Positions 11,907 through 30,110 of a stretch of 30,111 bases of DNA are shown piece by piece. Positions within the stretch are counted from its first letter, which is position 1; every line of letters starts with the position of its first letter. This DNA comes from Pedosphaera sp. Lineage in GTDB: Bacteria > Verrucomicrobiota > Verrucomicrobiia > Limisphaerales > SIBH01. The position numbers and the translations under genes were made by a program. The stretch spans positions 1 to 30,111 of the forward strand of contig JANOQV010000092.1 of assembly GCA_031414955.1 (NCBI GenBank), written 5' to 3'. The notes beneath the pieces are model-generated. The model was not told the DNA's origin and searched no databases. It saw nothing but the letters and a program-made list of their open reading frames with translations.

Positions 11907-12010
11907 GGTAGGGCGGCGGTGTCCTCACCGCGCCGCGCCACGAAGCGGACGAGAATGCTCGAACTTGCGTGAGCCTCACTCCGGCGCGCTGAGGACAGCG
12001 ACGCCCTACC
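11907..12010. repeat. GTAG-type REP doublet (REPIN-like)
   Basis: ggtagggcggcggtgtcctcaccgcgccg (11907-11935) and inverted cggcgcgctgaggacagcgacgccctacc (11982-12010), 26/29 complementary. Confidence 0.8.
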
Positions 12011-16233: not shown

Positions 16234-16410
16234 GAGCCGGTCTGAAAATTTGGAGGCGGAGTGCGCCCGTCCTCGGGCGCAGCCACATGATGACTTGGAG
16301 CGCGTCGGAAAATCCCATACCCGCTGATGTTCGCACCTTCCTGCGCCCGGGGACAGGCGCACTCCGGAGCTGGCAGCTTTCGCTGCACCAGTGACTTTTC
16401 AGACCGGCTC
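16234..16410. mobile_element. MITE-like element with 15-bp terminal inverted repeats, containing a GGAG-type REP doublet
   Basis: GAGCCGGTCTGAAAA ... TTTTCAGACCGGCTC flanked by TGA/TAA; inner inverted pair 16258-16282 and 16341-16365. Confidence 0.7.
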
Positions 16411-18547: not shown

Positions 18548-18640
18548 ACGCCGGATCGGGAACCGGCGCTTCATCATCAGTGACTGGCCGCGTCCCTCAG
18601 CGGCTCAACTTCTTTGCCTTCCCTCCGTGCTCGTGCGGCC
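18548..18640. repeat. Degenerate copy of the composite repeat at 27406-27497
   Basis: 54/70 identical without gaps over the first 70 nt by manual alignment. Confidence 0.7.
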
Positions 18641-20562: not shown

Positions 20563-21564
20563 TCATTTCAAAACGTAGCGTCCGGTTTTCACAGTGCCCA
20601 CGCGCTTGACCAACCCGGCCTTCACCAGCGGACGCAGCAAATCCATCGCGCCCTGCTTGGACACCTTCAGTGCCGCCCAGAGTGCGGATGGCGCCATGCC
20701 CCCGCTCTGGCCGAGCAGCTTCAGCAACTGCTCCTGACGCGGGCGGAGCACCACCTTCTCGCGCGCCGTGGAAACCGAGAGCTGCCCCATCCGCTCCCAC
20801 ACCCGCTCCAGCGTTTGCCGCAAACCCTCGGCGCAATACTCCAGCCACGAGGTCAGGTCGTCGCCTTCGCGTCGCACCGCATCCAGCGCCGCGTAATACC
20901 GGGGGCGATCCTCCCAGTAAAATTCGTCCACCGCGAAGATGTGATGCGAATCAAACCCGCGCCGATAAAGTTCCCAGAGTGCCAGAGCCCGGCCCGCGCG
21001 CCCATTGCCATCGGCAAACGGATGAATCGTCTCGAAGCGATGATGCACGATGGCCGAACTCAACACCGGCGACAGTCCCGGCGCATCCTTGTTCCACCAC
21101 TCCAACAGTTCGAACATCAGGCCCGACACATCCTCCGGCGGCGGCGGCACGAAGTGGCCCACCCGCACCCGCATCGTCCGGTAGCGACCCGGCTCGCCCT
21201 GATCCATCACCTCACCGGCGATGATCTGGTGCAGCCGGAAAATGTCCTCATGCGTCAGTCGCTTCTTCGTCGCCTGCTTCTCCACATGCCGCAGTGCCGC
21301 GAAATAATTCAGCACCTCGCGTCGTGCCCGCACCGGCGCGACCACCGTCGTTCCTTCCTCCAGCGCGCGGACTTCCTCCAGCGTGAGCGGATTGCCCTCG
21401 ATGGCGGTTGAACTGTGGGTGTTCCGCGCTCGCGTGTCCTTTTGCAGCGCGGGAATCCACGGCAATTGCACCGCCGCGCCTTGAATGCGCTCCCGCAGGG
21501 CGGCAATGCTTTCCACCCGCGCCAGCAGGGCGACCGTGATGGTGAATTGCGGCTGGTAACTCAT
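20563..21564 (-). CDS. Fic-family protein (N-terminal inhibitory helix) with C-terminal winged-HTH
   Basis: Fic motif HPFADGNGRAGR; inhibitory motif STAIEGN; C-terminal HTH-like 'LWAALKVSKQGAMDLLRPLVKAGLVKRVG'. Confidence 0.92.
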   Translation of the reverse strand: MSYQPQFTITVALLARVESIAALRERIQGAAVQLPWIPALQKDTRARNTHSSTAIEGNPLTLEEVRALEEGTTVVAPVRARREVLNYFAALRHVEKQATKKRLTHEDIFRLHQIIAGEVMDQGEPGRYRTMRVRVGHFVPPPPEDVSGLMFELLEWWNKDAPGLSPVLSSAIVHHRFETIHPFADGNGRAGRALALWELYRRGFDSHHIFAVDEFYWEDRPRYYAALDAVRREGDDLTSWLEYCAEGLRQTLERVWERMGQLSVSTAREKVVLRPRQEQLLKLLGQSGGMAPSALWAALKVSKQGAMDLLRPLVKAGLVKRVGTVKTGRYVLK

Positions 21565-21571
21565 GTCCGCC

Positions 21572-21622
21572 ACTTTGCCGATGGGTCAATCTTGGGTCAA
21601 GTATCAGTCAAGTATCGGTCAA
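21572..21622 (-). promoter_or_regulatory. Four 11-bp-period TTGAC direct repeats overlapping the putative fic promoter
   Basis: GTCAA at 21585, 21596, 21607 and 21618; minus-strand TTGACC-17nt-CAAAGT-7nt-ATG. Confidence 0.65.
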
Positions 21623-21646
21623 GCTGCCGAAGCCCATGCCCACCTT

Positions 21647-21799
21647 CCCTCTCCGCCTCGAACGGGGAGAGTCCGACGCCACCATCGCCCATCAGATTTT
21701 CCTTCTCCGCATCCGATGGGGAGAAGGTGGCCGCAGGTCGGATGAGGTGTGCTTGGAGAGTGGAGAGGGGCTGGGGTGAGGGCAATGGGGTGAGGTGTC
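21647..21799. repeat. Cluster of CCCTCTCC...GGAGAGGG palindromic repeats, apparently nested
   Basis: ccctctccgcctcgaacggggagag; ccttctccgcatccgatggggagaagg; ggagaggggctggggtgagggc. Confidence 0.7.
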
Positions 21800-22024
21800 G
21801 AGGTTTTACTGTGCTTGTCGCCGCCATTCCACCCCCGCTACTCTCGCCGCGTTCCGAAAAACAAAACGATCCAGAAACCAATTTAACCAGAACCAATTCG
21901 CGTAGCTTCGGCTGCTGTCCACTACGAAACCGCTAATTTCGACACGAAGGACATCGCTTGATGCACGCCCCACCTGGGGCGTGTTGAAAGCGCTCCTTCG
22001 TGGGCCCTTAGCGGTGCCTGTAGT

Positions 22025-22055
22025 GGGGCGTGTGTAAACACGTCCCTTTTGTTTT
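22025..22055 (+). terminator. Intrinsic terminator-like hairpin upstream of the Type ISP gene
   Basis: ggggcgtgt-gtaa-acacgtccc followed by ttttgtttt. Confidence 0.5.
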
Positions 22056-22131
22056 CAGGCACCGGGAAGAACCCACGGAGGACACGCCATCCCGACAGGG
22101 CTGATTCGCGCGCGAGCGAATCCCTGTCTGC

Positions 22132-25100
22132 ATGGCTAAAATTTCCATTCACGACGTCCTCGCGCATTTTCGCGAGGCCGCATCTTCCAACCGTGACCTC
22201 GGCGACCGCTTCGAGCGGCTCATCTGCCGTTACCTCGAACTCGATCCCATCTACGCCGAGCGCTTCTCGCGCGTGTGGATGTGGAACGAGTGGCCGCGCA
22301 AAGGAAACGTCGGTGACGTGGGCATTGACGTGGTGGCCGAAGAGCGCGCCACCGGTGAGTTCTGCGCCGTCCAGTGCAAGTTCCATCTCCCGGAAAACGA
22401 AATCAGCAAAGGAGACATCGACTCCTTCTTCACCGCCGCAGGCAGTGCCAGGTTCACATCGGGAATCATCGTCTCCACCACGGACAAGTGGGGCAAAAAT
22501 GCCGAGCACGCTCTCCTCAGCCAAGGGAAGCCATTCAACCGAATCACCGTCCACGACCTCGACGCCAGCCCGATTGACTGGTCGAAGTTCAGTCTCCAGC
22601 GCCCGCAAGACCTTTCCTTGCGCGAGCGGAAGAAGGCGCTTCAACACCAGACCGTCGCCATCACCGACGTAATCAACGGCTTTGCCCAGGCCGACCGGGG
22701 CAAACTCATCATGGCTTGCGGCACAGGCAAAACCTTCACTTCCCTGCGCATCGCCGAACAAATCGCGCCCACGGGCCACGTTCTCTTTCTCGTGCCGTCA
22801 CTCTCGCTGCTGTCGCAAAACCTGCGCGAATGGACCGCCGAATCCACCCGCCCCATGCACAGCCTCGCCGTCTGCTCCGACACCAGCATCGGCAAGCGCA
22901 CCACCAAGACCGACGACGACAAGGCGGACATCACGACCTACGGCCTCGCGTTTCCTGCCACGACTTCCGCACGGCAGATTGTCGGCCAGTATCAGGCGAT
23001 TCACCGCATGGCGGAGAAAAAGAAAACGCCCGCGCAGATGACCGTCGTCTTCTCCACGTATCAATCCATCGAAGCGGTGGCAGAAGCGCAGAAAGCCGGG
23101 TTGCCGGAATTCGATCTCATCATCTGCGACGAAGCACACCGCACCACGGGCGTCACTCTCACCGGCGAAGACGAAAGTCACTTCGTCAAAGTCCACGACG
23201 CCAGTTTCATCAAGGCGAAGAAACGCCTCTACATGACCGCCACGCCGCGCATCTATGGCGACGAGGCCAAGGTGAAGGCGGAACAGGCCAGTGCGGAAGT
23301 CTGCTCAATGGATACGGTCGAACAGTTCGGCGCGGAGTTTCATCGCCTCGGCTTCGGCGAAGCCGTCGGCAAATCCCTGCTCTCCGATTACAAGGTGCTC
23401 GTTCTTGCTGTGGACGAAAAATACGTCTCCAAAACTTTCCAGCGTCAAATCACCGACGTGAACAACGAGATCAATCTCGACGACGCCGTTCGTATCACCG
23501 GCTGCTGGAATGGTCTCGCCAAACGCTTTGAACAGTCCGCCGCCACCGCCACCGCCGCCGACTTGCAAGGCGACATGGCTCACATGCGCCGCGCTGTGGC
23601 CTTCTCCCGTTCCATCAAAGACTCGAAAGCCTTCGTCGAGAAGTTCGGCCAGATCATCGCCGCCTACCGCGAGACGCATCCCGACGCGGAAAATCTCCTT
23701 ACCTGCGAACTCGATCATGTGGACGGCACATACGACGCCCTCAAGCGCAACGCCCGGCTCGATTGGCTCAAAGCCAATTCCCCGGACCACACCTGCCGCA
23801 TCCTCTCCAATGCCCGTTGCCTTTCCGAAGGCGTGGACGTGACCGCGCTGGACGCCGTGCTGTTTCTCAATCCGCGCAAATCCATCATTGATGTCGTCCA
23901 GTCCGTCGGGCGCGTGATGCGCCGCGCGGAAGGAAAGAAATACGGCTACATCATCCTGCCCATCGGCATCCCGGCGGACGTGCCCGCCGAAGAAGCGCTG
24001 AAAGACAACGAGAAATACAAAGTCGTCTGGCAGGTCTTGCAGGCGCTCCGCGCCCACGACGACCGCTTCAACGCCACGGTCAATCAGATCGAACTCAACA
24101 AGCAGCGGCCCGACGTGATCCAAGTCATCGGCATCGGCGGTGACGACCCGAACTCCAAGGACGACAGCAAGAGCGACGGCGACAGTCAGATGAAAGTCCG
24201 CGAAGTGCAGGGCGCGTTTGCCTTTCCGCAACTGGAGGAATGGAAGGACGCGATCTACGCCCGCATCGTCCTCAAGTGCGGCGACCGTCGCTATTGGGAA
24301 AGCTGGGCCAAGGACGTGGCCGTCATCGCCGAACGCCACACCGACCGCATCCGCGCCCTGCTCGAAAGCGGTGAAGCGCGCCACAAGAAAGCCTTCGCCG
24401 ACTTCCTCGCCGGTCTGCGCGACAACCTCAATCCCAGCGTCACTGCGGACGACGCCATCGAAATGCTTTCCCAGCATCTCATCACCCGCCCGGTCTTCGA
24501 TGCGTTGTTCGAGAACTACGCCTTCACCCAGCAGAATCCCGTCTCCATCGCCATGCAGACGATGCTGGAAACGCTGCACGACCAGGCGCTGGAAAAGGAA
24601 ACTGCCGCGCTGGAAAAATTCTACGTCAGCGTCCGCCAGCGCGCTTCCGGCATCGACAACGCCGAGGGTCGCCAGCGCGTCGTCATTGAGCTTTATGACA
24701 AATTCTTTCGCACCGCCTTCCCGAAGATGGCCGAGCGCCTCGGCATCGTTTACACGCCGGTCGAGGTCGTGGATTTTCTCATCCACAGCATTAACGACAT
24801 CCTCCAGCGCGAGTTCTCCTGCACCCTTTCGGACAAGGATGTCCACGTCATTGACCCTTTCACCGGCACGGCCACCTTCATTGTGCGCCTCCTCCAGAGC
24901 GGCCACATCCGGCCCGCCGACCTCCTCCGCAAATACCAGCACGAGCTGCACGCCAACGAAATCGTCCTGCTCGCCTACTACATCGCCGCCATCAACATCG
25001 AGGAAACCTTCCACGGGTTGCAACGAACCGGTGTGAAATATCCCGGCGCGGAGATAGGCCGCCCCTACAGGGCTTCCGATACGCGGGCCTCTAAACCTGG

Positions 25101-27396
25101 GGCGATGCCCCAGGCTGGAATGAGTTGCGCCGTTGGCGCAGAAGCCGCAGCCCCAACGGGGCATACCATACCAGCCCAGGGCAACGCCCTGGGTCGCGCC
25201 ACCCCGCAAGTCCAAAGCCCTGAAGGGGCGGCCTACATTCCGTTTGATGGCATCGTGCTGACGGACACGTTCCAGCTTTCGGAAACCAAAGGTGAGATGG
25301 ACGAAAAGATGTTCCCCGAAAACAACCGCCGGCTGAAGCGCCAGAAGCAAAGTCCCATCCGCGTCGTCGTCGGCAACCCGCCATATTCCGTCGGCCAGGG
25401 CGACGCGAACGCAAACAACCAGAATCTAAAATACCCCATCCTCGACGAGCGCATCCGCGCCACCTACGCCGCCCAATCGAGTGCCACGAACAAGAATAGC
25501 CTCTACGACAGCTATATTCGTGCTCTGCGCTGGGCCAGCGACCGCATCAATGGCAAAGGCGTCGTTGGCTTCGTCACGAACGGCGCGTTCGTTGACGGCA
25601 ATGCAATGGAAGGTTTGCGCGCCAGCCTGACCGACGAGTTCTCCACCATCTACATCTTCAACCTTCGCGGCAATCAACGCACCTCTGGCGAAACGTCCCG
25701 CATGGAAGGTGGCAAAATTTTCGGCTCAGGCAGCCGCGCCGGAATCGCCATTTCCTTGTTCGTTCGGAATCCCGATAAAAGCGGGAAGTGCGAACTTCAC
25801 TATCACGACATCGGCGACTACCTCTCCCGCGAAGAAAAGCTGGCTCTCATCCGTGGCTTCCAAAGCATCAACGGCCTTCACCGCGAAAAGAAATGGCAGC
25901 GCATCCAGCCCAACGCCAGCCACGACTGGATTAACCAGCGCGACCCGGCTTTCGAGAAGTTCGTTTCCGTTGGCGACAAGAAGGACGATGAGGCGAAGAC
26001 GGTTTTTGAAAACTACTCCAGCGGTTTGAAAACGTGCCGTGATGTTTGGTGCTACAACTTTTCCAAAGCGGCAGTGACGGCGAACATGCAACGCATGATT
26101 GCTTTCTTTAACACGCAGGTTGAGGGCTTCGCCAAAGTCAGCACCGGAAAACTCAAAGAGGAGCTTCCCGCCTTAGCCGAGTCCTTCATTGAAACCGACG
26201 GAAAGAAAATCTCATGGTCGCGCGGATTACTGACTGACCTCACACGGCTGACTGAGCGGCCCTTCCGCCCGGACGCCGTCCGTCAGGGAATTTACCGGCC
26301 CTACTGCAAGCAGTGGGCGTACTTTGACCGCCACCTCAATGACATGGTCTATCAGTTGTTCCGCCTGTTCCCAACAGCGTCGCTCGATAATCTCGCCATT
26401 TGCATGACCTCCGCTGGCAATCGCGTCGAATTCTCCGCACTGATTTGCAATGCGTTGCCCGATTTGCACATGGCTGATTCCAACGGAGCGAGCCAGTGCT
26501 TCCCCCTCTACCTCTACGAGAAGGTCGAGCCAGCGGAGTCAAAGAGCGGCGAAGAAAAGAAGCTCCGGCAAGGCGAGATGATTGCCAAAGAACCGGTAGG
26601 CGAGTTGGTGGACGGTTACCGGCGGCGCAGCGCCATCACGGATGCCATCCTCGCCGATTTCCGCGCGGCTTACGAAATGCCGGACGCGGCAGCCCACTCC
26701 CTCTCCTCCATTCGGAATGGAGGAGAGGGCCGGGGAGAGGAGGAGTCTTTATCAACCAAGCCGCCCCTCTCTCCGGATCTCTCCCCACTCCTGCCTCGCG
26801 GGGCGAGAGAGAAAGCCCGCGCCATCACCAAGGAGGACATCTTTTACTACGGCTATGGCGTGCTGCATTCGCCGGAGTATCGCACGCGCTTCGCCAGCGA
26901 CTTGAAGAAAATGCTGCCGCGCCTGCCCTTCACGCGGGAGACGGCGGATTTCTGGCGCTTCAGCCAGGCAGGCCGCGACCTCGCGCAATGGCATTTGAAT
27001 TACGAAACCGTCGAGCCGTGGCCGGCGAAGGAATTTGCCGGTGAACTCCTGAGCGACCCGGCGAAGGATTTCCTCGTCCAGAAGATGACCTTTGGCCGGA
27101 AGGACAAGCAGGTGGACAAGACCGCCATCCATTACAACGCGCAAATCACGCTCACCGGCATCCCGCTCGAAGCCTACGATTACGTGGTGAACGGCAAACC
27201 CGCGCTCGAATGGATCATGGAGCGCTACCAAATCACCGTGGACAAAGACAGCGGCCTCCGCAACGACCCGAACGATTGGGCGCGCGAACACAACCAGCCC
27301 CGCTACATCCTCGACCTCCTCAAGCGCATCGTCCGCGTGAGCCTGGAAACGATGAAGATCGTGAACAAGCTGCCAGCGTTGAACGAGCGGAAGTGA
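22132..27396 (+). CDS. Type ISP (LlaGI/LlaBIII-like) single-polypeptide restriction-modification enzyme: Mrr-like nuclease, SF2 helicase, N6-adenine methyltransferase, target recognition domain
   Basis: Nuclease 'DVGIDVVA...VQCK'; Walker A MACGTGKT; DEAH; TATP; 'QSVGRVMR'; 'GIVYTPVEVVDF'; motif I DPFTGTATF; motif IV NPPY; C-terminal 'YVVNGKPALEWIMERY'. Confidence 0.93.
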   Translation: MAKISIHDVLAHFREAASSNRDLGDRFERLICRYLELDPIYAERFSRVWMWNEWPRKGNVGDVGIDVVAEERATGEFCAVQCKFHLPENEISKGDIDSFFTAAGSARFTSGIIVSTTDKWGKNAEHALLSQGKPFNRITVHDLDASPIDWSKFSLQRPQDLSLRERKKALQHQTVAITDVINGFAQADRGKLIMACGTGKTFTSLRIAEQIAPTGHVLFLVPSLSLLSQNLREWTAESTRPMHSLAVCSDTSIGKRTTKTDDDKADITTYGLAFPATTSARQIVGQYQAIHRMAEKKKTPAQMTVVFSTYQSIEAVAEAQKAGLPEFDLIICDEAHRTTGVTLTGEDESHFVKVHDASFIKAKKRLYMTATPRIYGDEAKVKAEQASAEVCSMDTVEQFGAEFHRLGFGEAVGKSLLSDYKVLVLAVDEKYVSKTFQRQITDVNNEINLDDAVRITGCWNGLAKRFEQSAATATAADLQGDMAHMRRAVAFSRSIKDSKAFVEKFGQIIAAYRETHPDAENLLTCELDHVDGTYDALKRNARLDWLKANSPDHTCRILSNARCLSEGVDVTALDAVLFLNPRKSIIDVVQSVGRVMRRAEGKKYGYIILPIGIPADVPAEEALKDNEKYKVVWQVLQALRAHDDRFNATVNQIELNKQRPDVIQVIGIGGDDPNSKDDSKSDGDSQMKVREVQGAFAFPQLEEWKDAIYARIVLKCGDRRYWESWAKDVAVIAERHTDRIRALLESGEARHKKAFADFLAGLRDNLNPSVTADDAIEMLSQHLITRPVFDALFENYAFTQQNPVSIAMQTMLETLHDQALEKETAALEKFYVSVRQRASGIDNAEGRQRVVIELYDKFFRTAFPKMAERLGIVYTPVEVVDFLIHSINDILQREFSCTLSDKDVHVIDPFTGTATFIVRLLQSGHIRPADLLRKYQHELHANEIVLLAYYIAAINIEETFHGLQRTGVKYPGAEIGRPYRASDTRASKPGAMPQAGMSCAVGAEAAAPTGHTIPAQGNALGRATPQVQSPEGAAYIPFDGIVLTDTFQLSETKGEMDEKMFPENNRRLKRQKQSPIRVVVGNPPYSVGQGDANANNQNLKYPILDERIRATYAAQSSATNKNSLYDSYIRALRWASDRINGKGVVGFVTNGAFVDGNAMEGLRASLTDEFSTIYIFNLRGNQRTSGETSRMEGGKIFGSGSRAGIAISLFVRNPDKSGKCELHYHDIGDYLSREEKLALIRGFQSINGLHREKKWQRIQPNASHDWINQRDPAFEKFVSVGDKKDDEAKTVFENYSSGLKTCRDVWCYNFSKAAVTANMQRMIAFFNTQVEGFAKVSTGKLKEELPALAESFIETDGKKISWSRGLLTDLTRLTERPFRPDAVRQGIYRPYCKQWAYFDRHLNDMVYQLFRLFPTASLDNLAICMTSAGNRVEFSALICNALPDLHMADSNGASQCFPLYLYEKVEPAESKSGEEKKLRQGEMIAKEPVGELVDGYRRRSAITDAILADFRAAYEMPDAAAHSLSSIRNGGEGRGEEESLSTKPPLSPDLSPLLPRGAREKARAITKEDIFYYGYGVLHSPEYRTRFASDLKKMLPRLPFTRETADFWRFSQAGRDLAQWHLNYETVEPWPAKEFAGELLSDPAKDFLVQKMTFGRKDKQVDKTAIHYNAQITLTGIPLEAYDYVVNGKPALEWIMERYQITVDKDSGLRNDPNDWAREHNQPRYILDLLKRIVRVSLETMKIVNKLPALNERK
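25055..25235. repeat. Inverted doublet of a three-hairpin palindromic repeat, in frame inside the Type ISP gene
   Basis: Ends taggccgcccctacagggctt / aagccctgaaggggcggccta are 20/21 complementary; internal cccagggc-aac-gccctggg hairpins. Confidence 0.85.
26697..26812. repeat. Inverted doublet of the CCCTCTCC palindromic repeat, in frame inside the Type ISP gene
   Basis: Perfect 14-bp stem ccctctcctccatt-cgg-aatggaggagaggg plus an inverted partner cccctctctccggatctctcccc...ggggcgagagag. Confidence 0.85.
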
Positions 27397-27400
27397 AGCG

Positions 27401-27572
27401 GGAACACGCCGGGTCGGAGCCCGGTGCTCCGGCATCAGCGCCAATCAGCGTCCATCAGCGGTTCAACTTCTTTGCGCTTTCTGCGTTCTTTGCGGCCATT
27501 CCATCCGCGTTCATCCGCATCATTCGTGGTTGAAAATTCTGGAACACGCGGACTCGGCGGTCCGCGCTCCGG
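27401..27572. repeat. Composite repeat: two direct GGAG-type REP hairpins enclosing 9-10-bp-period tandem motifs
   Basis: ggaacacgccgggtcggagcccggtgctccgg (27401-27432) and ggaacacgcggactcggcggtccgcgctccgg (27541-27572) flank atcagcgcca/atcagcgtcc/atcagcggtt, ctttgcgct/ttctgcgtt/ctttgcggc and atccgcgttc/atccgcatc. Confidence 0.75.
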
Positions 27573-27574
27573 GA

Positions 27575-28411
27575 TCAGCCCTTGGGCTTGTCCAGCTTCT
27601 TGATTTCGCGGTGGGAGGATTTGAGTTTCTTGTGGACCTGCTTGATGTCTTCGGCGGGCGGCAAATCTTCCGGGCGCTTGCCGCTGATTTCGATCATGGT
27701 GCGGCGGACTTTCCGGCCCACGTCCTCGGCGACGCGCTCCAGCGGTTGCTGGCCCCGGATGCGTTCGGCGCGAATCTTCTCCTCGGTCTGCGTGACGCGA
27801 AAAAGATTGGCTGCCAGTTCGGTCTTGCCCATGAAGTCGAGTGGGGAGCGTCCGTCCGGCACACCCTTGCGCCGGCGCACCTGCCACAAGTCCATGTTGT
27901 AGAGGCCGCGATAGCCGGAGTTTTGGAACAAGGCGTAGTCCACCACGCCGGACATTTTGGCCGTGCCGGAGAGCGTGCGTTCGTGCTCGGAAATCTCGCC
28001 GCGAATGGCGACGCGCTCCACGCCCTCGGCCTGTTCGAGATACAGCCGGCACGCCTCCGCCCATTGCACAAAATATCCCTGGGCTTGCGCGACCTGCGGT
28101 ATCTTCGGATCGCCGTTCATGGCGGCGAGGTAGCAGGCGAAGCGGGAAAGTTTGTAATCCGTGACGAGCTTCCCATCTACCTCGCGCTGGTCCTGCACGA
28201 TGTTGTCGAACACGGGAATGTTCAGGCTGGTCAGGGCCATCATCGCGCGCTCCACGGCCTTGCGGAAACTGTTCACACTCTCGTAGCCGAGCATGACCGC
28301 GAGTTCGGAAGCCCACCAGAAGCGGAAACCGTTGCTATGGGCGAGCGACTCGAAACCAGGTTTGTTCGGTTCGAGGTGGAATGGACTTTCGTTGGAAGCT
28401 TCGCCGCTCAC
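27575..28411 (-). CDS. dinD: DinD-like / BRO-N domain protein
   Basis: 'FWWASELAVMLGY', 'DYKLSRFACYLAAMNGDP', 'AQGYF', 'FQNSGYRGLY', 'LDFMGKTELAANLFRVTQTEEK', 'PEDLPPAEDIK'. GTG start preceded by TTGCGC-16nt-TAGTGT. Confidence 0.85.
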   Translation of the reverse strand: MSGEASNESPFHLEPNKPGFESLAHSNGFRFWWASELAVMLGYESVNSFRKAVERAMMALTSLNIPVFDNIVQDQREVDGKLVTDYKLSRFACYLAAMNGDPKIPQVAQAQGYFVQWAEACRLYLEQAEGVERVAIRGEISEHERTLSGTAKMSGVVDYALFQNSGYRGLYNMDLWQVRRRKGVPDGRSPLDFMGKTELAANLFRVTQTEEKIRAERIRGQQPLERVAEDVGRKVRRTMIEISGKRPEDLPPAEDIKQVHKKLKSSHREIKKLDKPKG

Positions 28412-28540
28412 GGTGCGACACTAGCCGCGCGGTTTAGCGGCGCAAACCCAAACGTGGCCGTCTTCTCGACATTACTTTTCCCGGGCTGACTCATCGCCGC
28501 CATTTTGCCAACTCCGTGTCTCCGCGCGAGTCGCATTTCT

Positions 28541-28645
28541 GCCGCCCCGACAGGGCTTGATGATTTGTTTTGGGAACCTGAATCCAGGGCGTCGCTCGCG
28601 GACTCGCTTTGCCCTGGGCTATTGTCTGGCCGCGCTTACAGCGCT
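28541..28645. repeat. Intergenic single copy of the three-hairpin palindromic repeat (same family as 25055-25235)
   Basis: gccgccccgacagggctt...ccagggc[gtcgctcgcggactcgcttt]gccctgggct...gcgcttacagcgc. Confidence 0.75.
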
Positions 28646-28682
28646 CCGGCATTCCGCCTTCGTCTGACTGTGGCGCGACGAG

Positions 28683-28708
28683 CAGCGCCAATCAGCGTCC
28701 ATCAGCGG
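28683..28708. repeat. 26-bp exact direct repeat of 27436-27461
   Basis: cagcgccaatcagcgtccatcagcgg occurs at both positions. Confidence 0.85.
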
Positions 28709-30110
28709 CACCCTTCCCGCTGGCCCGTGGTTTTGCTTCGCCGGTGCGGAGGAATTGAATCAAGTCCGCCATCTCCTGTTGGCTCAATCCGGCCTCGAGT
28801 CCCTCGGGCATGAGCGAGATGTTCGCGCCCCGGAGTTCGGCGATGTCGGTGCGGAGCACCACGCGCTTCGTGGCGTCGGCGAGCTTGAAGGTGATGCTGT
28901 TGCCGGTCTCGGCGGCGATGAGTCCGTACAACTCGGTGCCGTCCGCGAGGCGGCCATGGTAGGCGTGGAAGCCGGGCTGCACGTCGGCGCTGGGATCGAG
29001 AATGTTCGCCAGCAATTTCTCCGGCGGATGGCCAGCCACGGAGCGCAAGTCCGGCCCGACTTCGTTCCCGACCGCGCCGCGCTGGTGGCAGGTGAGGCAC
29101 AGCTTGGTGAACACGGCTTCACCGCGCGCGGCATCGCCCACGAGCTTCAGCGCGGGTTGAAATTGCTCAATGACCTTCGCGCGGCTCGAAGCGGCGGACG
29201 TGTTGAAAACTTGGCCCGCCAGTTCGCGAATGCGCGCCGAGGAATGCTTGATCAACTGGCTGCGCCGGGCGGCGTCGAACGAGGGCGTTCCATCCTTCTG
29301 CGCGTGTTGCAACAGCGCGAACGTCCACGGCTCGCGGGAGAACAGGGCGTCGAGCGCGGCGGCGCGCGTCTCCGGCGAGAACGACGGCCAGCCGTCGAGC
29401 AACGTGGCGGGCACGGACGGGTCCGCCGCCAGCGCCAGCGCGTTCACGGAGGCGCGCTGAAGTTCGCCGGACTGACGCGGCGCGAGCCAGCCGGAGAGCA
29501 ACGTCAGCGTGTCGGCGCGACGCGCGGGAGATTTCGCCAGGAGATTGGCGGCGGCGGCACGCGCGGTGACGGGCTGCGATTCCTCCACGGCCGCCTTCTT
29601 CGCGGCGTTGAAAAGCGATTCGGCAGCGGCGAGCTGCCTAGCGAGCGCGTCATCACCCACGGCAAGTGCGGCGAGCGTGGTCTTGCGGCGCACGAGCGTG
29701 TCGAGGAACTGGCTGAAGGCCGCCATCTGCGCGGCGGTGAACGCGGCCTCCTTCGCCGTCAGCGTCGGTGACAGCAAAGCGGCCAGCGCATCGCGCTCAT
29801 TCAGGCCGAGTGTGAGGTTCACCAGCGGCTCGGAGAGCGACGCCAGCGCGGGCTGGCCAGCACGCACGGCGGCATTGACCAGCGCGTGCGCGTGCGGGAC
29901 GGCGGAACTCATCACGGCGGCGACCATGAAGCTACCTGCGTGGTGTGCGACAGCGAGACGGCCCAACGCTTCGCCCGCGCGCGGGTCACTCCACTCGCCG
30001 AGCGTGCAGGCGAGTTGGAGGCGGACTTTGGCGTCCGGGTCATCGACCAGTTTCGCGGCGGCGGAAATCACTTCGGGCGAAGATTGCTTCTCCGCGAGAC
30101 GCAGCGCGTT
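28692..30110 (-). CDS. PVC-type heme-binding CxxCH protein with HEAT-like repeats (C-terminal part; starts outside the window)
   Basis: HEAT-like 'DPDAKVRLQLACTLG'; 'GEAVFTKLCLTCH...VGPDL', 'ILDPS', 'SLMPEGLE...ADLIQFL'. Frame is open to the window edge. Confidence 0.9.
   Translation of the reverse strand, partial: NALRLAEKQSSPEVISAAAKLVDDPDAKVRLQLACTLGEWSDPRAGEALGRLAVAHHAGSFMVAAVMSSAVPHAHALVNAAVRAGQPALASLSEPLVNLTLGLNERDALAALLSPTLTAKEAAFTAAQMAAFSQFLDTLVRRKTTLAALAVGDDALARQLAAAESLFNAAKKAAVEESQPVTARAAAANLLAKSPARRADTLTLLSGWLAPRQSGELQRASVNALALAADPSVPATLLDGWPSFSPETRAAALDALFSREPWTFALLQHAQKDGTPSFDAARRSQLIKHSSARIRELAGQVFNTSAASSRAKVIEQFQPALKLVGDAARGEAVFTKLCLTCHQRGAVGNEVGPDLRSVAGHPPEKLLANILDPSADVQPGFHAYHGRLADGTELYGLIAAETGNSITFKLADATKRVVLRTDIAELRGANISLMPEGLEAGLSQQEMADLIQFLRTGEAKPRASGKGAADGR

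Follow-up and report, generated by a model that had tools for sequence, protein, structure and literature searches.

A palindromic doublet lies in frame within a Type ISP restriction-modification gene

The window analysed here (30,111 nt; positions 1 to 30,111, forward strand, of contig JANOQV010000092.1 in the Pedosphaera sp. assembly GCA_031414955.1) contains a Type ISP restriction-modification (RM) gene that carries, between methyltransferase motifs I and IV (NPPY), a 181-bp inverted doublet of a repeat whose arms each hold three hairpins. The encoded enzyme combines an Mrr nuclease, a superfamily 2 helicase, a coupler, an N6-methyltransferase and a C-terminal specificity domain in a single chain, the domain set of a Type ISP enzyme, and its best solved relatives are LlaGI, LlaBIII and DrdV. 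An earlier note on this DNA had placed the insert correctly between the two motifs; it had no cognate transposase, no Rfam match and no second palindrome in the same gene, all of which are described below. The features are listed by coordinates within the window.

22132–27396, plus strand: open Type ISP RM gene, 1754 aa (open reading frame (ORF); Pfam Mrr_cat_2, ResIII, ISP_coupler and Type_ISP_C)
24853–24879, plus strand: methyltransferase motif I, residues 908–916, with Ala914 (alignment)
25053–25142, plus strand: left arm, with H1 at 25061–25073, H2 at 25096–25114 and H3 at 25127–25139 (nhmmer E = 1e-15, this arm being one of the profile's own seeds)
25055–25235, no strand: inverted doublet of three-hairpin arms, H1 outermost (complementarity and folding)
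25057–25233, plus strand: in-frame part of the doublet, 59 codons, residues 976–1034, predicted to be unstructured (ORF frame; AlphaFold model)
25147–25237, minus strand: right arm, with H1 at 25217–25229, H2 at 25175–25193 and H3 at 25150–25162 (profile); H2 and H3 resemble RF01687
25234–25236, plus strand: codon of host Tyr1035, source of the doublet's terminal TA (junction in all six family-carrying homologues)
25375–25386, plus strand: methyltransferase motif IV (NPPY), residues 1082–1085, intact (alignment)
26677–26817, plus strand: second in-frame insert, 47 aa, residues 1516–1562, an unrelated CCCTCTCC-type doublet in the specificity domain
28538–28647, plus strand: intergenic lone arm from the three-hairpin family, its H2 longer than usual (profile E = 2e-11)

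Folding and complementarity bore out the earlier description of the doublet. Its outermost 21 nt are complementary at 20 of 21 positions, the arms at 25055–25087 and 25203–25235 are 82% complementary over 33 nt, and the full 181 nt form a single long hairpin (z-scores of −8.8 for DNA and −9.8 for RNA; RNA fold of the 181-nt element, −121 kcal/mol) that none of 200 shuffled sequences equalled in stability. Each arm comprises three hairpins, H1 and H3 with stems of 5 bp and H2, between them, with a stem of 8 bp; the stem variants are those given in the note. No stop codon occurs in the gene frame across the doublet and, because 181 bp is not divisible into codons, the in-frame part is 25057–25233. 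The TA noted at both ends is present, but does not stand as a signature of duplication: TA is self-complementary and rare in other arms, and the right-hand TA is formed by the first two bases of the Tyr1035 codon, a residue that is invariant in 66 aligned sequences. CTAC is the most frequent tetramer at this Tyr codon (41 of 137 parsed loci) and closes several inserts; as a candidate targeting signal it was set aside, since GC-rich codon use accounts for it equally and targeting is unproven.

The AlphaFold model of residues 846–1280 gave the insert (model residues 125–186) as coil without secondary structure, with a predicted local distance difference test score (pLDDT) below 50, and superposed the remainder of the methyltransferase on LlaBIII and LlaGI with a root-mean-square deviation (rmsd) of 2.0–2.4 Å. 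Low pLDDT is expected where few residues align, and disorder is a prediction; on this model the insert is predicted to form an unstructured surface loop, in agreement with the earlier suggestion that an in-frame peptide is tolerated here.

The three-hairpin family is dispersed in the host genome

The host genome is a 6.5-Mb assembly in 313 contigs with 5.8% estimated contamination. BLAST found related arms on several contigs, and a profile built from 17 arms recovered 37 arms in the genome (seeds included) and none in the reversed genome, which confirmed the proposal of a non-autonomous palindromic family with other genomic copies. When these copies were counted by position, as the note had recommended, 52 of 54 clusters lay outside in-frame positions of long ORFs and two lay in frame. 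The free copy noted at 28541–28645 was recovered as a single arm, not a doublet. Opposed pairs make up 25 of the 54 clusters, 23 with H1 inward and two with H1 outward. A dispersed, multi-copy family that is mostly intergenic and often arranged as inverted doublets has the characteristics of repetitive extragenic palindromes (REPs) and of the REP doublets known as REPINs.

The stems of the family covary. Among 41 aligned arms, 94% of 738 stem cells pair and 98 cells have changed on both sides, with a covariation score of 0.378 relative to 0.112 in shuffled and at most 0.151 in slid alignments, figures that are inflated by kinship among the arms. Stem changes are mostly Watson-Crick swaps; about six of the 738 cells are G-T, and the innermost pair of H1 accounts for 17 cells that do not pair, mostly C-A. 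A looser parse gave 23 G-T versus 2 A-C, so that such counts, taken as a guide to the functional strand, differ between the two parses. The scarcity of G-T pairs in these sequences would fit hairpins formed by DNA. Covariation supports the structural part of the earlier reading for the family; the differences between the two arms of the doublet are by themselves no sign of selection inside the gene, because the same stem variants occur among free copies.

The foot of H1 is variable. Across 37 H1 hairpins neither TA nor GTAG is fixed; what recurs is a loose T-R-K-G-Y-C tail, and the conserved 5′ GT[AG]G tetranucleotide of REPs is lacking from the family. GTAG is present in the right arm of the doublet and in both arms of a related doublet at locus L013, from an Opitutia metagenome-assembled genome (MAG), the ends of which are GTAG and CTAC; a GTAG/CTAC guide was rejected as a family tag, as it is not general across the 37 hairpins. 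In this Opitutia doublet the central spacer is long (L013:3845–3995) and contains an apparent further repeat pair, and repeats may nest at this site.

The arms accompany a subclass 1.2 TnpA and include the Acido-Lenti-1 motif

On two other contigs of the host genome, C90 and C172, arms of the family flank genes for 150-aa Y1 transposases, and the outer 21 nt of the doublet's right arm are identical to DNA from the stop codon of the C90 gene. Both proteins carry DHVH, WQ and YxxxQxxHH, the signature of TnpA subclass 1.2 in the available part of PMC6006769, and are assigned to that subclass by these motifs; they pass the IS200/IS605 model NF033573 and fail the RAYT model NF047646 (17.5 and 25.2 bits versus a cut-off of 80). 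The genome has five subclass 1.2 tnpA copies, a low number, and these are diverged; 42 of 301 genomes of the phylum have such a gene. A model made solely from this genome's arms matched 19 of 29 tnpA loci elsewhere (57 matches), with no match in reversed sequence and one among 159 Type ISP loci as controls, and YxxxQxxHH was found at all 29 of these loci. Repeats that flank an HUH Y1 transposase gene, as seen at C90, C172 and these 19 loci, are a further characteristic of REP and REPIN systems. No TnpB family was seen among the scanned ORFs neighbouring tnpA genes. By analogy with such systems, the subclass 1.2 enzyme is most likely what disperses these arms, although Quentin et al. (2018) list this subclass with 'no' REP in the part of their text available (PMC6006769).

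At one of these loci (L215; G000:C90:8985–9754) an arm occurs twice in direct orientation, in nearly identical copies on either side of tnpA, and a start codon follows each copy; it looks as though insertion of tnpA had duplicated the arm and, with it, the site where translation of the methyltransferase gene downstream begins. Genome-wide, Y1 transposases gave twelve matches, which fall into three kinds or more, the readable ones with flanking repeat types of their own.

H2, the 12-nt spacer and H3 match the Rfam family RF01687 (Acido-Lenti-1) in sequence and structure, reproducing its layout of an 8-bp hairpin, a linker of ~12 nt and a 5-bp hairpin with a 3-nt loop. The arms at L013 score 30.6 and 30.4 bits, and the left arm of the doublet has no full H2+H3 match; the right arm is related to RF01687 through its structure and the family it belongs to, and is not formally a member. 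RF01687 also matched 10 of 20 scanned tnpA loci elsewhere, with six matches at or above the gathering score, and at least 60 places in the host genome, at least 34 of them above that score, these being lower bounds from 150 scored candidates of 1574. Acido-Lenti-1 was described by Weinberg et al. (2010) as a probable RNA with unknown function (PMC2864571, available in part), and an October 2026 preprint still calls it 'of unknown function'. No literature tying it to a transposase was found in a search whose coverage excluded most subscription journals.

Two loops of Type ISP enzymes recurrently hold repeats

Homologues were taken as the best 120 of 8000 scored with a query region that contained the insert, a choice that favours carriers of the three-hairpin family. 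Between motif I and NPPY the host has 71 residues versus ~6 in LlaGI. The statement in the earlier note that this loop is normally only a few residues long is right for LlaGI but not for the nearest homologues (10–20 residues), and its estimate of some 60–70 extra residues was right about an extra peptide and somewhat high, the host loop exceeding those of close relatives by about 50–60. The loop has 4–21 residues, with modes at 10 and 19–20, in 100 of the 120 homologues and at least 27 in the other 20, of which six hold the three-hairpin family and 14 hold other peptides. All six carriers, the host included, end at the same Tyr: P0001 (the host protein), P0002 and P0003 (the protein at L013) have doublets, and P0009, P0027 and P0036 have partial arms.

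Other repeats use the same loop. The loops of P0007 and P0030 match 37 and 38 places in the host genome and represent other repeat families, inverted or short tandem repeats were seen by eye in the DNA of L015, L017, L027, L030, L031, L034 and L094, and P0021, the closest overall homologue among those compared (87%), has the CCCTCTCC-type family in this loop instead. A second loop, near residue 1515, has three residues in 71 of 83 parsed homologues and at least 30 in eight; here the host has its CCCTCTCC-type doublet, from a family with 24 genomic clusters, four of them in frame. Internal inserts of at least 22 residues fall at just these two sites, bar one odd segment in P0007. Overall, the motif I–IV loop is a recurrent landing site for several repeat families, and the second loop is alike. 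Three of the four in-frame CCCTCTCC-type clusters lie in DNA methyltransferase genes.

In a search with the insert peptide, proteins of 964–3070 aa gave 23 candidates, of which P0002 alone proved to have it; a search of 1.8 billion representatives gave 17 matches, 16 without a Pfam family, and those that were read were mostly translated repeat arrays. Two of 40 related genomes matched the methyltransferase region, both with broken genes and neither with the three-hairpin family at the loop. When 256 loci were compared with a junction pattern, it fitted L013 and the window and no others. Outside the Type ISP set, P0131 (residues 565–640; DUF4062/NACHT-type) and the related fragment P0136 have an in-frame doublet of the three-hairpin family at the same place. 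A Type ISP gene from the same genus (L255, G303:C61; also L070) is internally deleted and has other repeat families at both loops, one deletion starting at the first repeat.

In a tree of all 120 sequences (quick method, loop columns removed), loop type did not track the flanking sequence, with a carrier beside a non-carrier in the pairs P0009/P0044 and P0027/P0090 (support 99). The best match to the host protein shifted from segment to segment, P0002 being best only around the loop, and this shift indicates that Type ISP genes are mosaics. The inserts of P0001 and P0002 have the same length and the same register and share 44 of 60 residues. Relative to L013, all stem differences in the left arm are compensated, although the amino acids change.

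In-frame repeats are routine in this genome

A k-mer survey of the host genome gave 911 REP-like intervals; with a home-made gene caller, and once 13 intervals within genes had been set aside for scoring as coding, 36 long ORFs held 40 in-frame inserts. Hosts include LeuRS, DnaE, UvrA, a Mur ligase, AcrB and four RM methyltransferases, so that RM genes are 4 of 36 host ORFs in this unbiased survey. In-frame palindromes are thus routine in this genome, and the event is unremarkable for this lineage; there is also a precedent in Opitutus terrae, in which in-frame REP dimers were reported in 2013 to be most numerous and often to lie in DNA-processing genes (PMC3733652, available in part).

Both in-frame copies among the 54 three-hairpin clusters are in RM genes, the other being in an HsdM-S fusion on C172. 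In that gene (L206; G000:C172:5681–5891) the doublet has H1 inward and lies in the HsdM–HsdS linker after short tandem repeats, with a subclass 1.2 tnpA immediately downstream. Of the 18 loci in this subfamily, seven (or 6 of 17 if the window is left out) have a DNA methyltransferase gene no more than 3.5 kb away; the zone so defined makes up 3.1% of the genome. None of 26 loci of other Acido-Lenti-1 subfamilies lie near methyltransferase genes, and none of the 29 tnpA loci in other genomes had RM genes within ~1.5 kb. A family-wide preference for RM genes was therefore rejected, the association being confined to this subfamily in this genome and absent at tnpA loci elsewhere; because neither of these sets has RM neighbours, arrival of the repeats on acquired islands is an adequate reading of the link.

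In the window, a Fic-domain/helix-turn-helix gene (20563–21573) and a DinD-like gene (27575–28411) flank the Type ISP gene, a neighbourhood that suggests a small accessory island. Intergenic palindromes of other families or tracts of short direct repeats lie at 11907–12010, 16257–16366, 21640–21800, 18548–18631, 27406–27489 and 28683–28708. No promoter-like sites were found in 21500–28800, and terminators were not in excess there. Matches of the element to microRNA families were dismissed as generic hairpin matches far under the cut-offs of those families.

Origin and role of the insert

We consider the insert to be a non-autonomous REP-like doublet with a Y1 subclass 1.2 partner, a tolerated passenger in a loop that encodes a peptide without function, and give this reading a probability of about 0.7. 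By analogy with the biochemistry of TnpA-REP and IS200 enzymes, TnpA of subclass 1.2 would recognise folded single-stranded hairpins and cut and rejoin the adjacent DNA, so dispersing arms and doublets that carry no genes, with no target duplication. The doublet sits in frame immediately before the conserved Tyr, in place of ~7–8 codons of a loop of 19–20 residues, and would be translated as the modelled unstructured surface loop of an enzyme that probably still works. The motif I–IV loop and the loop at residue 1515 may resemble hot spots mainly since inserts elsewhere have been purged, and the recombination responsible for the mosaic state of Type ISP genes would then add and shorten inserts, exchange them and carry them from one such gene to another.

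Several observations weigh against this account. The most pointed is that hairpins are better conserved than spacers: P0001 and P0002 disagree at only 1 of the 32 codons in hairpins, compared with 15 of the 28 in spacers (Fisher p = 1.2e-5), and a comparison with L013 gives 1 changed base among 45 in the hairpins of the right arm versus 12 of 42 and 12 of 21 at fourfold sites. Single insertion followed by neutral decay does not explain this pattern, and stem conservation could result from repeated insertion of sibling elements at one junction, from conversion by free copies or from selection. The homologue alignment proposed in the earlier note fixes the right end at Tyr1035, but no clean empty allele was found and the boundaries are approximate. 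The H1-outward orientation of the doublet is the rarer one (2 of 25 opposed pairs in the genome), and its right arm (25149–25193) scores 28.6 bits against RF01687, whose gathering score is 37 (E = 8e-5 with 301 nt searched). Ten of the 29 tnpA loci elsewhere were unmatched by the arm model, although by eye these mostly have the same layout with diverged sequence. When 15 loop peptides were compared with the host genome, three gave 22–38 matches, five gave 1–3 and seven gave none, and residue 914, Ala in the host, is Gly in 116 of 120 sequences.

Alternatively, the hairpins could be functional in the gene, either as handles for TnpA- or homology-driven exchange of segments or as an mRNA hairpin that tunes expression or cleavage. 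The conserved stems, the diverged spacers and the compensated differences at L013 would follow from this, as would the strong predicted RNA fold and a P0002 match that is best only in segments holding the loop; moreover, the two repeat-bearing loops bracket residues 1035–1515, including the most variable, specificity-related stretch, the deletion in the broken same-genus gene begins at the loop repeat, and both in-frame copies and 7 of 18 subfamily loci are in or near RM or methyltransferase genes. Repeated insertion of mobile siblings would conserve stems equally well, however, and the RM link does not extend to the 26 loci of other subfamilies, the 29 outside tnpA loci or the remaining hosts of in-frame repeats (only 4 of 36 are RM genes). 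With 100 of 120 homologues short-looped and unrelated families occupying the same loop, we regard a function for the hairpins as improbable, though worth keeping in view. A bolder version, in which hairpins placed by an HUH enzyme and kept intact while translated would act, at two repeat-docking loops on either side of the specificity-bearing half, as handles for single-strand recombination that swaps methyltransferase and specificity segments from gene to gene, and in which Acido-Lenti-1 would be a DNA substrate of subclass 1.2 TnpA and not a small RNA, is a long shot.

A decaying enzyme, in which relaxed selection let repeats accumulate and the methyltransferase is impaired, would account for two inserts in one gene, for an Ala at position 914 that departs from Gly as in only 4 of 120 homologues, and for the internal deletion of the same-genus homologue. 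Yet all 1754 codons are open, the nuclease, Walker A, DEAH and NPPY motifs are all present, and, of 639 conserved columns, the host differs from the consensus in 5, which is also the median for the 120 homologues; long-looped homologues are no more deviant than short-looped ones (medians 4.5 versus 6; p = 0.32), and we consider decay unlikely. The terminal inverted repeats that start and end in TA recall a classical MITE (a miniature transposable element with inverted repeats) of a DDE transposase (IS630/Tc1-mariner) that duplicates TA on insertion. This origin is highly improbable: TA is rare at the equivalent position in other arms and belongs to the host Tyr codon on the right, the L013 doublet ends in GTAG and CTAC, family copies without TA on either side were seen, single arms and both doublet orientations exist, and the family tracks a Y1 HUH transposase. 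TA was not found on all copies and no DDE partner was identified, no genome-wide DDE survey having been made.

The fragmentation and estimated contamination of the assembly, and the reads of many other organisms that pile onto the repeat, could point to a chimera formed in a MAG. An assembly artefact is nevertheless unlikely as the origin of the doublet, because contigs from two runs of one study bridge it without differences (runs that may be the source sample and are then not independent confirmation) and because P0002, an independent protein, has a doublet of the same length at the same place; L013, from another source, likewise has the family at the same codon. The sole joint that skips the element in the reads derives from another organism's homologue, and the chance that the junction is chimeric is very slight.

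Comparison with known systems

Translated palindromes are already known as a general phenomenon. Rickettsia palindromic elements (RPEs), cited in PMC3733652, are likewise long in-frame palindromes that are presumably translated, and the likeness drawn in the earlier note holds as an analogy; in the available part of that source several RPEs are CGTC-tagged and have no known transposase, whereas the three-hairpin family has a candidate cognate enzyme. The GTAG-tagged REP dimers of Opitutus terrae come closer, being in-frame palindromic dimers in protein genes of Verrucomicrobia that often lie in DNA-processing genes, sometimes two per gene, and for which flexible loops were proposed, as in the present case (PMC3733652, same part). 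Those dimers encode 20–30 aa with a conserved GTAG, whereas the present unit encodes 59 aa, with three hairpins in each arm and a GTAG that is not fixed, a distinction based on their description in the text; the word 'restriction' is absent from the main text of that paper.

REPIN/BIME elements (BIME, bacterial interspersed mosaic element) with their RAYT enzymes in E. coli and Pseudomonas are likewise gene-less dispersed doublets, and their cognate HUH Y1 enzyme has these repeats on its flanks. According to the available part of PMC8266576, TnpA-REP cleaves and joins folded single-stranded REPs, and similar single-strand, hairpin-guided chemistry would be expected here by analogy. The present enzyme is IS200-like (class 1) and not a RAYT (class 2, YxxNP), and its arms have three hairpins without the conserved GTAG guide. 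It shares with subclass 1.2 as described in PMC6006769 (partial text) a length of ~148–150 aa, DH[IV]H, WQ and YxxxQxxHH, low copy number and diverged paralogues; the difference lies in the 'no' REP given there versus three-hairpin arms at 19 of 29 loci here. RF01687, a probable RNA in PMC2864571 as far as that text was available, here corresponds to two thirds of an arm with three hairpins, copies of which stand on either side of a Y1 transposase gene. LlaGI and LlaBIII (PDB 5ffj, 4xqk) have the same domain order and methyltransferase fold as the host enzyme (42–44% identity, rmsd 2.0–2.4 Å) with a loop of ~6 residues versus 71, and the host also has the 47-residue insert in its specificity domain.

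Of most interest here are the proposed assignment of Acido-Lenti-1 to a transposase, together with the two recurrent landing loops of Type ISP enzymes and a stem conservation that is unexplained, the last two being new. An abundant orphan family of Rfam thereby gains an identity that can be put to the test, namely the hairpins on which a transposase subclass published as REP-less would act. The two insertion-tolerant loops accept ~25–120 extra residues in nature, which is useful both for engineering Type ISP enzymes and for the interpretation of annotation noise. That hairpins are conserved to excess in translated copies raises the checkable question of whether in-frame repeats are still turned over by their transposase and, if the swapping of segments at the two loops were true, Type ISP genes of this bacterial group would contain a REP-driven diversification system for a defence enzyme.

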